Shown here one piece after another: positions 22,571 through 35,628 of a stretch of DNA of 50,883 nucleotides; position 1 is the first letter of the stretch, and every line of letters starts with the position of its first letter. The stretch is from a virus. Lineage: Duplodnaviria > Heunggongvirae > Uroviricota > Caudoviricetes. The stretch is taken from the IMG/VR virus record IMGVR_UViG_2874962485_000005; one strand, written 5' to 3'. Made by a program: the position numbers and the translations under genes. The notes beneath the pieces were generated by a model. The model had not been told where the DNA came from, searched no databases, and saw nothing but the letters and a program-made list of their open reading frames with translations.

Positions 22571-23424
22571 TGGCATTATTACTGGAGCCACTGCAGTTCA
22601 CCTTTATGAGTCACGCACTGCTGATTTCACTGGTAGTTTCCATACCCTGTGCGCTGCTGTCGGTCTTTCTGGTCCTGAAAGGTTGGGCACTGATGGGTGA
22701 CGCGATGAGTCATGCGGTTTTTCCTGGCATCGTGCTTACCTGGATTCTGGGGTTACCTCTGGCTACAGGGGCATTCGTCGCCGGAGTATTCTGCGCGGTG
22801 GCGACGGGATACCTGAAAGACAACAGCCGAATCAAGCAAGATACAGTTATGGGGATTGTTTTTTCTGGCATGTTTGCCGCAGGTCTGATCTTGTATATTG
22901 CAATTAAACCAGACGTACATCTTGACCATATTCTTTTCGGCGACATGCTCGGGATAACCATCGGCGACATAATCCAGACGGTGATTATTGCCGGGCTGGT
23001 TACACTTGTTATTAGCGTAAAATGGCGGGATTTTTTGCTGTTCAGCTTTGATTATCAACAGGCGCAGGTAAGCGGTTTGCATACGAGATGGCTGCATTAT
23101 GGGCTGCTGTGCATGGTTTCCCTGACCATTGTGGCGACGCTGAAAGCAGTAGGTATCATTCTCTCTATTTCTCTGCTCATTGCGCCTGGCGCCATTGCAG
23201 TACTCCTGACACAACGCTTTCATATTGCGCTCCTACTGGCGACTGGCATATCGGTAATAGTGTCAATGACTGGTGTCTGGCTGTCCTTTTTTATCGACAG
23301 CGCACCAGCTCCGACGATTGTCGTCTTATTCGCGGTCGTGTTCATCATGACGTTTACCGTTACCAGCATCAACGCACGCACAAAGGGAAACGCCCATACA
23401 CAGGATCTGTTATCACCCAATTAG
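22567..23424 (+). CDS. sitD: SitD ABC transporter permease
   Basis: 285-aa hydrophobic paralogue of SitC, overlapping its stop. Confidence 0.88.
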   Translation: MMALLLEPLQFTFMSHALLISLVVSIPCALLSVFLVLKGWALMGDAMSHAVFPGIVLTWILGLPLATGAFVAGVFCAVATGYLKDNSRIKQDTVMGIVFSGMFAAGLILYIAIKPDVHLDHILFGDMLGITIGDIIQTVIIAGLVTLVISVKWRDFLLFSFDYQQAQVSGLHTRWLHYGLLCMVSLTIVATLKAVGIILSISLLIAPGAIAVLLTQRFHIALLLATGISVIVSMTGVWLSFFIDSAPAPTIVVLFAVVFIMTFTVTSINARTKGNAHTQDLLSPN

Positions 23425-28284: not shown

Positions 28285-28399
28285 CGCTTGATTTCCTTTT
28301 TGTTTGCACCCTGAAGTCGCACCCCCACTGACCTACTCAAAGTCCCCAAGCGAAGGGAGACCAGCAGGACAACAGGATGCAAACAGAATGACTTTGAGA

Positions 28400-28653
28400 T
28401 TGAATACTATGATGATGACGATGTAGCTGTGCGGAGCTACTGGGAGGGTCTCTCTAGGAGCCACTCTAGGGTCTCTCTAGGGTCTCTCTAGGCATCAGGC
28501 TATACGAAACTACAGGGCATCCTAAAGAATGACGTACAGGGCCATAGAGGACCATAGAGGGCCATAGAGTTAGCTTCTGGGGGTAATGCCTAGAGGAGAC
28601 CCTAGAGAGACCTATAGAGAGACCATAGAGAAGACCTATAGAGAGACCCTAGA
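28400..28653. repeat. Short tandem repeat arrays (GGGTCTCTCTA x3, CCATAGAGG x3, GAGACC(C/A)TAGAGA x5)
   Basis: Direct reading; continues across the IS911-like insertion into 34880..34900. Confidence 0.75.
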
Positions 28654-28661
28654 TGAAGTGG

Positions 28662-32004
<3,343 letters not shown>

Positions 32005-32022
32005 TCAGAACCGTATTGATAT

Positions 32023-33594
32023 TTACTGAGAGCTCAGATCAACTTTCCAGGGCAACAGATCGCGTACCCGGTTTGCCGGCCAGTCCTGGATATGTTCAAT
32101 GACGTAACGCAGCCACTTTTCTGGCTCCACATTGTTCAGACGGCATGTGCCGATCAGCGAGTACAACACCGCCGCATGTTCACCACCGCTGTCGGAACCC
32201 GCGAACAGCCAGTTTTTCCGGCCTACGGCCACTCCCCGTAAGGCGTTCTCTGCGATGTTGTTGTCGATTTCCACCCAGCCATTACTGCAGTACACGTTCA
32301 GGGCCTCCCACTGTTTCAGCAGGTATGCGAACGCTTTTGCCGTATCCGAGTGACGCGACAGTGTTTTCATCTGAGTCTGTATCCAGTCATACAGTGACTG
32401 CATCAGTGGCGCAGCTCTGGCTTTTCTTGCTGCCAGACGCTGTTCTGCTGAACATCCCCGGACTTCTGCCTCGATGGCATACAGTTCACCGATACGCTGC
32501 AGGGCTTCCGTGGTGATATCGGTTGGCGCTCTTGCATGCACATCGTGGATTTTTCTCCGGGCATGGGCCATACACGCGGCTTCCGTTATTCTGCCGGATT
32601 CGTATAACGCCCGGTAGCCACCGTAAGCATCGGCCTGAAGCACTCCGCTGTAACCGGCCAGGTGATTTTGTGGATGGATGCCTTTCCGGTCCGGGCTGTA
32701 CGCGAACCAGACCGCCGCAGGCATCTGTGAACCGGCGTTACGGTCATCACGGACGTAGACCCACAGCCGGGCTGTCCGGGTTTTACCGCTGCCCGGCTCC
32801 TGGACCGGGACGGGGATATCATCGGCATGGACTTTACCGGGCATCAGCACATACTGGCGCAGGACGTCATACAGTGGCTCCAGCAGTTCAGCAACAGCAC
32901 CTGTCCAGCGCCCCAGTGTGGCACGGCTCAGCTCCACGCCCTGACGACGGTATATTTCTGACTGGCGGTATAACGGCAGATGGTCTGCATATTTCCCGGT
33001 GACAACATGGGCAAGAAGCCCCGCTCCGGCATAACTGCGTGCAATGGGTTTTGAAGGTACTGGTGCCTGCACGATATGGTCGCACCGGCAACAGGCCAGT
33101 TTCGGACGTTGTGTTTCGATAACCTTAAAGGCGCTGCTGATAAGCTCCAGTTGCTCTGACACATCACATCCCAGAGAACTGAGTTCACCACCACAGGCAG
33201 GACAGCATTCCTCTTCCGGCCGGATGACCCGGGTTTCACGGGGAAGTGAGGCCGGTAACAGTTTACGGGCTGAAGACTGGCGCAGGGCGGATGGCAGTAC
33301 CGGGTCATATTGCTCACCCAGCGTTTCCGCCATTTCTTCCTGAAGTGCGCTGATTCGCTCCTGTGCTTCCTGTATCTGTCGTTCGGTTTTTGCGCGAAGT
33401 TTTTCTGAGCTTTTACCGAACTGCATGCGCTGCAGTTTTGCAACCAGCGCCTTCAGCCGGTTGATTTCGGAAGCATAAGCCGCCACCCGCAGTGAGAGCA
33501 GGCGGTTATATTCGGCCATCTGGCGGATGGTGTCCTGTTGCGTCTGCAACAGTGCCCGCAGGCGGGCATTCTCATGAGCAAGTGAGGTGTCCAT
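32023..33594 (-). CDS. IS66-family transposase (OrfC)
   Basis: 523-aa ORF with N-terminal coiled coil and CxxC...CxxC zinc-binding motif. Confidence 0.85.
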
Positions 33595-33613
33595 ATCCTC
33601 ACTTTACAACGGG

Positions 33614-33961
33614 TTATATGCGGATTCCAGCGCGTTCCGTTCGTTTCGGGTGCTTCCAGTTGATACCTTCAAGAAGCATGGATAACTGAGCCGGAGTAAG
33701 GTGCACCTTGCCGTCACGGGTGACTGGCCAGACGAAGCGGCCCCGCTCCAGGCGTTTGGTGAAGAGGCACAGTCCGTCACTGTCAGCCCACAACACTTTT
33801 ATCTGGTCACCCCGGCGTCCGCGGAAGATGAACAGGTGTCCGGAGAACGGGTCATCCTTCAGGACGTTCTGAACTTTTGAGGCCAGGCCGTTAAAGCCAT
33901 TTCGCATATCGGTGATACCGGCAACCAGCCAGATACGCGAACCTGCAGGGAGAGATATCAT
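33614..33961 (-). CDS. IS66-family TnpB (OrfB)
   Basis: 115-aa ORF MISLPAGSRIWLVAGITDMRNGFNGLASKVQNVL... Confidence 0.85.
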   Translation of the reverse strand: MISLPAGSRIWLVAGITDMRNGFNGLASKVQNVLKDDPFSGHLFIFRGRRGDQIKVLWADSDGLCLFTKRLERGRFVWPVTRDGKVHLTPAQLSMLLEGINWKHPKRTERAGIRI

Positions 33962-34638
33962 CAGTGGCTGCTCCCTTTTATTTCGCGGATAAGTGTCTGT
34001 AATAACGCCGGCGTCAGTTTACCTTTAAGCCTGAGAGTTCCGGCCGGCAGAACCAGCTCACAACACAGACTGTCGGACGGTGTATTTATCTGCTCTGGTT
34101 CCTGTGCCGGAGCCGGGATTTTATTATCCGGCTCCGGCGTTAACGTCACGGGAAGCAGTGCCGGCATATTTTTTCCGGAAGGCAGCAGGCCACCTTTCCG
34201 GTATTGATGGCGCCAGTTGAAGAGCAGGTTATCGTTGATTCCGTTTTCCCGGGCGATCTGCGCCACACAGGCTCCGGGCTGCAGTGACTGCTCCACTAAG
34301 GCGATTTTAAACTCATAAGGGAAGTTGGGCCGCCGGGGACGTTTTTTTACCACGGGGGCTTCGGATATAACGGTGCTTTCAGGACGTACGACTGGTACCG
34401 TGGAAAATTGTCCGTAAAGGCAGGCATCAAGTTCCTGCTCCGACATGCCTGAGGGCAAAGGCCACGAAAGGCCAGCTCTCCGAAAGCGCACAAACATACT
34501 ACAAACTGTTGATTTTGGTACACCCAGGCGACGCCCGGCCACAACCCGGGGTAAATGTTCTTCAAAGTGAAGACGTAAAGCTTCAGTGATCCAGGTCCGG
34601 TGTTTCATACGATAGTGTCCATTAAAAATGATGGACAT
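33961..34638 (-). CDS. IS66-family OrfA (HTH)
   Basis: 225-aa ORF overlapping tnpB start. Confidence 0.75.
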   Translation of the reverse strand: MSIIFNGHYRMKHRTWITEALRLHFEEHLPRVVAGRRLGVPKSTVCSMFVRFRRAGLSWPLPSGMSEQELDACLYGQFSTVPVVRPESTVISEAPVVKKRPRRPNFPYEFKIALVEQSLQPGACVAQIARENGINDNLLFNWRHQYRKGGLLPSGKNMPALLPVTLTPEPDNKIPAPAQEPEQINTPSDSLCCELVLPAGTLRLKGKLTPALLQTLIREIKGSSH

Positions 34639-34691
34639 TATTTTTGTAGAGCCGGAGGAAACAGACCAGACGGTTTAAATGAGCCGGTTAC

Positions 34692-34807
34692 ATTGTGGAA
34701 AGGCCAACATCCATAGCTTTGGCGGCATCTGCCACCGTGTATTTCTGGTCAACAACCAGTTGAGCGGATTCGCGTTTAAACTCTGCGCTAAAATTTCTTT
34801 TTTTCAT
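34692..34807 (-). pseudogene. IS911-like orfA, N-terminal fragment
   Basis: [39 protein letters not shown] then IS66-family insertion. Confidence 0.8.
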
Positions 34808-34899
34808 TGGAGCACCTGTGTTGTTCTGAGGTGAGCATATCACCTCTGTTCAGGTGGCCAAATTCAGTGTGCCACTTCAAGAGAAGACCTATAGGTTTG

Positions 34900-35110
34900 G
34901 TGATTGATTATTATAAATATCATCACCCCTTAAGGTATTCCCTTAGAGTTAATCTTTAATTGGTCTTTAATTAAATCTTTTATTTAATACTTAAAGTTAA
35001 TCTCTAATTGTGTCTTTAAGTTAACTTTAAGTAATACTATAAGTTAATCTTTAATTGTGTCTTTAAGTTAACTTTAAGTTAAGCCCCTGTAGGGACTAGA
35101 GACCATAATT
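34900..35110. repeat. AT-rich array of TTAAAG-containing direct repeats (two ~45-bp units plus shorter copies)
   Basis: ACTTAAAGTTAATCT(C/T)TAATTGTGTCTTTAAGTTAACTTTAAGT repeated. Confidence 0.7.
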
Positions 35111-35276
35111 AAGATGATTGTGTCTTATTGCTATTCACTTATCGACTGACCCAGAGCACACAGGAAGCATTCACTTTAAGTAGAACGCTTGGTGTCTGTA
35201 ATTGGTCATCCCGCCCCTGAAAGGATGCGATAAGTTACGGTTAGTTGTCCTAGAAGAGAAAACTTTTTGTGTCCCT

Positions 35277-35299
35277 TCTCCCTATAGTGAGTCGTATTA
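35277..35299 (-). promoter_or_regulatory. T7-class (single-subunit RNAP) promoter, copy 1
   Basis: Minus strand reads TAATACGACTCACTATAGGGAGA (23/23 match to consensus -17..+6); fires toward lower coordinates. Confidence 0.8.
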
Positions 35300-35396
35300 A
35301 TTATCCTTGACAAGTAGAGAAAACCATGAGTCAAAAACATGACCACACAGGTCTGTAGTAAGTGTCATCCTAGAAGAGAAAACTTTTTGTGTCCCT

Positions 35397-35419
35397 TCTC
35401 CCTATAGTGAGTCGTATTA
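35397..35419 (-). promoter_or_regulatory. T7-class promoter, copy 2
   Basis: Identical 23-mer, 120 bp from copy 1. Confidence 0.8.
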
Positions 35420-35517
35420 ATTACCCCTTGACAAGCAGAGAAAACTATGAGTCAAAAACATGACCGCACAGGTCTGTAGTAAGTGTCATCCTAGAAGAGA
35501 AAACTTTTTGTGTCCCT

Positions 35518-35540
35518 TCTCCCTATAGTGAGTCGTATTA
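35518..35540 (-). promoter_or_regulatory. T7-class promoter, copy 3
   Basis: Identical 23-mer, 121 bp from copy 2. Confidence 0.8.
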
Positions 35541-35628
35541 ATTATCCCTTGACAAGCAGAGAAAACTATGAGTCAAAAACATGACCACACAGGTCTGTAG
35601 TAAGTGTCATCCTAGACTATGGTCTCCT

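Follow-up and report, generated by a model that had tools for sequence, protein, structure and literature searches.

The window analysed in this study, 50,883 nucleotides of the IMG/VR virus record IMGVR_UViG_2874962485_000005, contains a non-coding block that has been split by an insertion sequence (IS). The coordinates given are those of the window, and the features of the element are read on its minus strand (Table 1). On this strand, the tRNA-Gly gene with the left attachment site (attL) was followed by the gene of a tyrosine integrase (int), three T7 promoters and a segment of about 160 nt with a predicted structure. Further downstream were an AT-rich array, a GGTGAT…ATCACC palindrome, short-repeat arrays, a leader hairpin and the first cargo gene. 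The block is the non-coding control region of a "T7 island", a family that was already described by Chen and Schneider in 2006. The original prediction, which had called attention to the repeat arrays downstream of the promoters, did not recognise the whole unit as an integrative island of this family.

Table 1. Positions of the island features in the window and in related loci (TRF, Tandem Repeats Finder; ORF, open reading frame; a caret marks a terminal-repeat boundary; L numbers denote individual island loci).
Feature	Position	Strand	Basis or remark
tRNA-Gly(UCC)	37348..37422	-	ARAGORN; island integration site, attL side
Island integrase, tyrosine recombinase, 534 aa	35629..37233	-	Pfam Phage_integrase 2e-17
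CTCTGTGTCCCT^ATCTGTTA, T7 terminal-repeat right boundary and concatemer-junction (class II pause) signal	36699..36718	-	inside the int ORF
3.1 tandem 121-bp units, each with a perfect T7 class III promoter TAATACGACTCACTATAGGGAGA	35248..35616	-	TRF
Three T7 promoters	35277-35299, 35397-35419, 35518-35540	-	directed away from int
Conserved non-repetitive segment of ~160 nt, ending in CTACAGGGGCT	35082..35241	-	directly downstream of the last promoter
AT-rich TTAAAG-type array	34947..35082	-	TRF; strand-specific TAAAG enrichment
Palindrome GGTGATGAT-ATTTATAATA-ATCAATCACC	34899..34927	.	pattern search
CTATAGGTCT/CTAGGGTCTCT array, first part, cut by the IS	34883..34898	-	joined with 28591-28653 in L006 (array 4021-4109)
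Composite insertion, not part of the island	28654..34879 (6226 bp)	-	direct reading; Pfam; alleles L005-L007
IS66-family element, TnpA/B/C	32023-34638		Pfam
Group II intron reverse transcriptase/maturase	29231-30754		Pfam
CTATAGGTCT/CTAGGGTCTCT array, remainder	28591..28653	-	TRF: period 12, 5.4 copies, or period 24, 2.6 copies
CTCTATGGCC repeat, period 10, 3.2 copies	28538..28569	-	TRF
Opposite-orientation array, CCTAGAGAGAC on minus and AGGGTCTCTCT on plus strand, period 11, 4.3 copies	28445..28492	-	TRF
Leader hairpin, ~95 nt	28301..28395	-	directly adjoins the first cargo gene's ribosome-binding site
First cargo gene, Rha-type DNA-binding protein, N-terminal 60 codons	28102..28284	-	Pfam Phage_pRha 6e-10
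Left-end cut-site mimic	L002 ~18410-18445; L008 ~11980; L011, L013, L014, L015		
PD-T7-4/RAZR carriers	L008 7610-8251; also L009-L012, L014, L018, L020, L022, L023, L026-L028		
Promoter type, E. coli and Shigella			T7 consensus
Promoter types, Klebsiella			K11-type, T7-type and ATTAGGTAGCACTATAGGGAGA, adjacent to one another
Promoter types, Serratia, Citrobacter, Yersinia, Rouxiella, Lonsdalea			other variants

The two halves of the block were originally continuous. The insertion was flanked by a 3-bp target duplication, AGA (28651-28653 and 34880-34882), and was identified with Pfam as an IS911-like element of the IS3 family with a nested group II intron and an IS66-family element. The Shigella-like locus L006, which has no IS, matched by 96.5% across the junction (positions 669-1372 of the rejoined sequence with L006 3883-4587), and L005 and L007 carried a plain IS of about 1.24 kb at the identical site. 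The rejoined block measured 1125 nt from the int stop codon to the next ATG, and its longest ORF had 46 codons (L006 was also examined). All that the original prediction had described was present at its coordinates: a stretch of about 1.1 kb without a long ORF, interrupted by an IS between AGA copies, with the continuity now proved by the collinear L006. TRF placed the AT-rich TTAAAG array and the CTATAG/GGGTC-type arrays at the positions predicted, and the arrays resumed beyond the IS at 28653, followed by two further arrays and the leader. The name IS911-like was correct for the outer element of what turned out to be a composite, and the interval 34880-35248, described as repeat arrays, contained the repeats together with the palindrome and the conserved non-repetitive segment.

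The Shigella copy itself is decayed. The IS splits its block, and an IS1 truncates the Rha-type first gene. In addition, the 3' end of tRNA-Gly, a further copy of which would mark the right attachment site (attR), occurred only once in the window; the attR side has therefore been lost. With the first gene cut and no attR left, this copy is a wreck. The lack of terminal direct repeats of 17-24 bp thus fits a truncated member of the T7 islands and not a non-member.

The promoter units had a period of 121 and 97% matches by TRF, and exact matches of 26-27 nt were found between the island promoters and phi13, phi10, phi6.5 and phiOR of T7. No phage RNA polymerase (RNAP) gene was encoded in the window, in which the longest ORF had 571 aa compared with about 883 aa for T7 RNAP (T7 3171-5822). 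The locus thus carries at least two tandem T7-like promoters and no cognate polymerase gene. Among the relatives (at least 12 loci from at least nine genera), each island had one to four phage-type promoters, all on the int-to-cargo strand, and the promoter type differed among hosts. The Klebsiella promoter ATTAGGTAGCACTATAGGGAGA matched 337 phage records, 327 of which were Klebsiella phages with 11-13 copies per genome, and it is therefore those phages' own promoter. With the Serratia variant, a search of the phage records pointed to no particular group of phages. In the K. pneumoniae islands, including that of the type strain ATCC 13883 (L023), K11-type, T7-type and Przondovirus-type promoters were present together (L008 8260-8380 and 8813).

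Some E. coli alleles carried additional elements around the promoters. A further promoter of diverged sequence, AATACGACTTACTAATAGGAGAC, preceded by AATCAATACG repeats, separated the arrays from the leader in the glyU alleles L001-L003 (for example, L002 19780-19860). The Shigella lineage was without the approximately 110 nt that hold this promoter, and CAGTAG flanked both edges of the gap. In E. coli FT130 (L001 ~15600-15800), 12 copies of GATGACCATAGGC and several of TGTGGTCCTA were situated between the int stop codon and the promoters, and these units also held primase-type pentamers. The same interval of Shigella contained GGAGACCTAGAGGAGACCATAG only.

The window integrase was 100% identical to a Shigella flexneri cluster of 769 sequences, and orthologues of 83-90% identity were found in at least nine genera, including Klebsiella, Citrobacter, Serratia, Yersinia, Raoultella, Cedecea and Lonsdalea. 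The block occurred in 91 of the 5426 complete E. coli genomes, in every case on the chromosome. In the E. coli loci examined, the island was located beside the glyU tRNA gene, between 23-bp direct repeats of the 3' end of this gene, as a complete 4.2-kb unit comprising int, a non-coding block of about 1 kb, a KilA-N gene and a gene for a 157-aa protein. Further loci, including those of Rouxiella, Edaphovirga and an Enterobacteriaceae isolate, showed the same architecture in units of 4.2-6.4 kb with tRNA repeats of 17-23 bp, and the islands of E. coli, Klebsiella and Citrobacter were all at tRNA-Gly between 17-23-bp direct repeats of the 3' end of the gene. Four modules of the block were common across genera: the structured segment, the AT-rich array, the palindrome (in most lineages) and the leader hairpin. 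The target sites were not the same, as the window copy was in a prophage tRNA-Gly(UCC) and the E. coli copies were in the chromosomal glyU adjoining the ETT2 type III secretion island.

The family described in 2006 is said to have comprised 12 islands of 4-13 kb with two or three tandem promoters and no RNAP gene. These islands reportedly had an upstream tyrosine integrase, terminal direct repeats of 17-24 bp and no recognisable structural proteins. The present locus agreed with them in its tandem T7-like promoters, the absence of an RNAP gene, the integrase upstream of the promoters and adjoining a tRNA gene, the end repeats of its relatives, the few small phage-related ORFs downstream of the promoters (the Rha-type fragment here, further genes in the relatives) and its enterobacterial pathogen hosts, including Shigella. 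It differed in being truncated and split by the IS. Of 8 million open-access papers searched, five contained the title of the 2006 work or the term "T7 island(s)"; the work stood there as a citation, no title among the five dealt with the islands, and other full-text searches returned nothing on islands bearing T7 promoters. A review cites the work of Chen and Schneider alongside the Shigella/E. coli sit island. The origin-like and right-end-like features, the boundary mimics, the HK97-fold cargo and the RAZR slot described below are, as far as can be told, absent from the 2006 account.

Since the integrase adjoins T7-type promoters and leader-like sequence, the locus might be taken for the remnant of a temperate T7-like prophage. 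This is extremely improbable. No RNAP, DNA polymerase, portal, terminase or tail genes of such a prophage were found in the window or in the intact relatives. In addition, the compact unit with its intact att repeats recurs from genus to genus, and the Klebsiella island has three promoter specificities, which no single phage would carry.

The conservation of the approximately 160-nt segment behind the last promoter extended from Shigella to Serratia, Klebsiella and Rouxiella. Its consensus fold had five pairs with compensatory changes, such as ACTTATCG/CGATAAGT compared with ACTCATCG/CGATGAGT, which were located in the closing stem and an internal hairpin. The segment is therefore predicted to be structured. 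Rfam, searched at permissive thresholds with four loci, returned no family for the block, including this segment.

The leader hairpin had a minimum free energy of -36 to -53 kcal/mol in four lineages. Its outer stem varied in sequence and kept its pairing (CTGTTTGCATCCTG/CAGGGTGCAAACA and TAAATGTGCA/TGCATATTTA), with a 19-bp stem in Lonsdalea. These stems were assessed by single-sequence folds, because the outer stem was misaligned by MAFFT/RNAalifold. In the chimeric glyU alleles of E. coli, the hairpin was disrupted. In its form, it is reminiscent of the RNase III sites of T7 leaders and might be processed likewise. A stretch of the leader, CATTCTGTTT, was considered as a junction pause site and rejected, as it co-varies as a hairpin arm and is not conserved as ATCTGTT.

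The AT-rich array was called by TRF at 34947-35079 with a period of 47, 2.8 copies and 87% matches, and contained a sub-array of period 11, CTTTAAGTTAA, in six copies. On the transcribed strand, TAAAG occurred eight times compared with 2.0 expected from dinucleotide shuffles (z 4.4), and its complement was not enriched. The ends of T7 are likewise enriched in TAAAG on one strand only. The copy number of the array differed between alleles. T7 and T3 each had the palindrome GGTGAT..ATCACC exactly once (at 39329 and 37538, respectively), and K11 had a related form, GTGATGATAATATCAC, also once (40609). All three phage sites were between phiOR and gene 19.5. Among the islands, the palindrome was found in most lineages, including those of Klebsiella, Serratia and Lonsdalea.

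The short repeats between the palindrome and the leader were lineage-specific. The CTATAGGTCT/CTAGGGTCTCT units held, by motif counts, GGGTC and TGGTC on the transcribed strand, the recognition pentamers of T7 primase. The E. coli alleles had 3-5 copies of GTATGGCCCT. Furthermore, the words CTATAGGGTC, CTATGG and TAGAGAG in these repeats are also words of the right-end repeat array of T7.

The block was compared with the genomes of T7, T3 and K11 by a strand-specific scan for shared 7-mers in windows, with the promoters removed from the query. The highest sharing in T7 was at the primary origin (5751-5951), about six standard deviations above the genome mean, and the left-end arrays of T7 and T3 reached about five. 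In K11, the windows with most shared 7-mers were the left end and the phiOR region. Moreover, the AT-rich array aligned locally to the AT region of the T7 primary origin with a score of 29 (shuffles 15.7±2.3, maximum 23) and to that of phiOL with 28 (shuffles 15.9±2.4). The controls were 100 dinucleotide shuffles, and the real alignments, at T7 5925-6010 and 405-500, scored above every one of them.

The order of elements was also that of a T7 origin. In the primary origin of T7 (phi1.1A/phi1.1B) and the secondary one (phiOL), as in the island, one or more promoters are followed by an AT-rich stretch with TTAAG/TTAAAG and by primase pentamers on the displaced strand. Unlike the T7 origins, the island has the conserved structured segment between promoter and AT region, and its AT region is a variable tandem array. 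There is no homology at the level of blastn, and the role as an origin is putative. The AT-rich array would be the DNA-unwinding region of such an origin. The island also resembled the right-end region of the T7-group phages, in which a promoter, AT-rich words, the palindrome and short repeats with CTATAGGGTC and CTATGG succeed one another, and gene 19.5 stands where the island has its cargo genes. The resemblance to T7 noted in the original prediction is thus real, at the level of motifs.

A contrary view is that the arrays are functionless simple sequence, prone to slippage in a decaying island, and that only the promoters and genes matter. It could account for the variable copy numbers, for the expansion of CTATAGGTCT/GGGTC in the Shigella lineage alone, for the (GATGACCATAGGC)x12 of E. 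coli upstream of the promoters and for the one lineage without arrays and palindrome. Against it, the TTAAAG array kept an equal position in all lineages from Shigella to Lonsdalea, the motif enrichment was confined to one strand, and the repeat vocabulary matched the origin and end regions of T7 above composition-matched controls. We consider this view improbable.

The signals of a phage genome end were found outside the block. Neither the terminal-repeat boundaries (..TA^TCTCAYAGT and GTGTCCCT^) nor the pause signal ATCTGTT occurred in the block of any allele, with up to 1-2 mismatches allowed. The right boundary with its concatemer-junction signal was instead inside int, as an exact 20-mer to T7 149-168 (20/20), a 19-mer to K11 and a 17-mer to T3. 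It lies within the int codons ..DSVSLSVNA... When whole islands were scanned exhaustively for exact matches to T7, T3 and K11, the promoters and CTCTGTGTCCCT^ATCTGTTA were the only ones of at least 18 nt. ATCTGTT occurred once per island on the sense strand, always at this motif. Islands of Shigella, Klebsiella, Serratia and Citrobacter all have the motif, and in the copies from E. coli glyU and Yersinia it has partly decayed.

The cut site of the left end was mimicked about 265 nt before attR in every intact island; the window lacks this mimic. The islands had TTTCCCACAAAAATCTCAGTGCCTA^TCTAACAGT (also CCCACAAAAATCTCAGTGCCTA^TCTAACAGT), compared with ATACCATAAAAATCTGAGTGACTA^TCTCACAGT in T7, and scored 23-26 of 32, while about 190 kb of control sequence gave at most 21. 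If the island were circular or concatemeric, about 0.8-0.9 kb across the joined attachment site (attP) would lie between the two boundaries, compared with 160-231 bp in the T7-group phages. As the boundaries are on opposite sides of attP, the junction is divided by integration and would be restored by excision. No terminator-like site on the sense strand was found between the cargo genes and attR of the Klebsiella island.

These results bear on the proposal, made in the original prediction, that the block is itself a fused phage genome terminus or a packaging (pac) site. The short-repeat vocabulary is indeed like that of the left-end and right-end arrays of T7 (SRL and SRR), and in Klebsiella the CTCACAGT-C-CTCTGTGTCTCC that follows the palindrome resembles a collapsed terminal repeat. 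Yet the Shigella and E. coli blocks lack any boundary or junction signal, and the unmistakable copies of the boundaries are located in int and near attR. A fused terminus was therefore wrong at these coordinates, and the proposal as a whole is very improbable; the accompanying guesses of a replication origin or packaging signal pointed in the right direction. The Klebsiella sequence concerned (L008 8770-8795, right after the palindrome) is CCACTCACAGTCCTCTGTGTCTCC, in which the left-end-like CTCACAGT is joined to CTCTGTGTC.CC, similar to the end of a terminal repeat. It may be a collapsed terminal repeat.

The cargo of the relatives started with a KilA-N, Rha or Bro-N gene, followed by one to three further genes. 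The larger islands (6.4-kb forms) encode a 375-aa capsid-like protein with a predicted HK97 fold, which had no sequence match in Pfam or PDB and was identified by fold comparison alone. The model of the 157-aa cargo protein of E. coli was unusable (pLDDT 44). Compared with NCBIfam and PADLOC, RAZR was the sole match of the cargo proteins. The PD-T7-4/RAZR gene was often present in the slot between int and the promoter block (PADLOC E 2e-101), and other lineages had a different gene (201 aa or 164 aa) or none in this place. This variation suggests a variable defence slot. RAZR is an abortive-infection RNase activated by the portal proteins of T7 and T3 (PMC13017515), and it protects when plasmid-borne under its own promoter. 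An overlap with an integrase gene has been reported to be frequent for PD-T7-4 and its homologues. The RAZR paper (PMC13017515) contains none of the words "integrase", "island" and "satellite" and has "T7 promoter" in its methods only, and the PD-T7-4 discovery paper (PMC9519451) does not mention T7 promoters.

The main rival explanation is an island of defence and decoys that is not transmitted. Its promoters would sense infection and its cargo would abort it, the copies of origin and ends would divert polymerase, replisome and terminase, and the capsid-like protein would poison heads. An abortive-infection RNase in the int-block slot, the exchange of that slot for other genes in other islands and the failure to find a packaged or circular form are what it would lead one to expect. 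However, RAZR works from its own promoter on a plasmid, and its gene is upstream of the phage promoters and therefore independent of them. Moreover, the att repeats are intact across genera, two tRNA-Gly targets are used and the cargo is recombined, as in a mobile element, and two terminal-repeat boundaries that are joined only by excision are hard to explain as a decoy. We regard this explanation as unlikely, and it is not exclusive with a satellite, since defence and satellite lifestyles go together in P4 and PICIs.

The reading we prefer is that the island, an integrative element of 4-6.5 kb, is a satellite of virulent T7-group phages, silent at tRNA-Gly until a T7-type phage infects, and that the block is its cis-acting control region, a module of promoters, origin and leader. 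As the island copies T7-type promoters, origin-like DNA and genome-end signals of these phages, it is probably their parasite. The most likely function of the block, judged by its motifs, would be the expression and replication of the satellite triggered by the phage RNAP. The infecting phage's RNAP would recognise the perfect promoters and transcribe away from int, across the structured leader segment and the TTAAAG array. Together with the primase-site-rich repeats, these may constitute a T7-type origin, with promoter, AT-rich unwinding region and priming sites. Transcription would next pass the palindrome and the short-repeat arrays, which echo the region from phiOR to the right end, and then cross the RNase-III-like leader hairpin into the cargo genes. 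After excision, it would run over attP into int and meet there the copy of the terminal-repeat end and concatemer-junction pause, where T7 normally recruits terminase. According to a published report (PMC3276506), T7 RNAP pauses at the concatemer junction and starts packaging through an interaction with gp18/gp19. The sequences show the anatomy and its conservation, the identity and polarity of the promoters, the likeness in motifs to T7 origins and the right-end region, the boundary mimics and the HK97-fold cargo, whereas the firing of the origin, RNase III processing, excision, recruitment of terminase and packaging are inferred.

A more specific and more tentative form of the satellite reading, for which we put the chances at somewhat below even, is that the islands are true satellites by mimicry of four signals. 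These would be promoters for the helper's RNAP as the switch (of several specificities in Klebsiella), a T7-type origin for copying by the replisome of the helper, a terminal-repeat junction split by attP and, in the 6.4-kb forms, small heads of the HK97-fold protein. Because the boundaries flank attP, a packageable junction with a terminase-recruiting pause site would exist only after excision or concatemer formation. The block would then be the switch-plus-origin module. Such islands would resemble PICMI, cf-PICI and P4, which are small, integrase-bearing and helper-dependent, and have copies of helper cis-signals and anti-phage genes. Unlike these, the presumed helpers of the T7 islands are virulent T7-group podoviruses, and induction would be through mimicry of phage-RNAP promoters and not through a derepression protein.

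Several results weigh against the satellite reading. The comparison of the block by blastn with 50,697 phage records gave the promoters as the sole matches, and the resemblance to T7 is therefore architectural and at the motif level, not alignable homology; 72,556 plasmids gave nothing. The primase pentamers were enriched in the block by motif counts that tandem repetition inflates. One island lineage (L013, L014, L015 and L028) was without the palindrome and the short-repeat arrays, which are therefore not universally required. The junction motif is in coding sequence and has decayed to CTCTGCAACTCTATCTGTTAG in the E. coli glyU alleles, and a capsid-like gene is missing from the 4.2-kb islands of E. 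coli. In addition, circular, concatemeric or particle-derived contigs were sought and none was found; the 4180-nt metagenome contig L028 is an integrated copy, the matches in IMG/VR were prophage regions of Shigella, and the short int-bearing contigs were integrated fragments. Furthermore, T7 degrades host DNA, so that a chromosomal element would need to escape quickly.

No satellite of a T7-type virulent coliphage is known to have been demonstrated by experiment. The anatomy makes the question of whether T7 islands are satellites directly testable, because both the sites (promoters, AT array, palindrome, the 20-mer in int and the left-cut mimic) and the strains are named. K. pneumoniae ATCC 13883 and the E. 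coli glyU carriers are candidate strains. The results also place the recently solved anti-T7 protein RAZR inside the T7-island family and are of relevance to phage therapy against Klebsiella and E. coli and to the use of T7 promoters in wild strains. The interest is in the anatomy of the family, as the present copy is a degenerate member of a described one.

The surroundings of the window copy were those of a lambdoid prophage. The tRNA-Gly(UCC) gene closes a tight Met-Arg-Thr-Gly tRNA cluster (37348-37658) inside this prophage, with a Q-like antiterminator (39964-40638) upstream of the cluster. The sitABCD genes of an iron/manganese transporter were located at 19975-23424, adjoining tail-fibre genes of the prophage, in the same IS-riddled region as the island.

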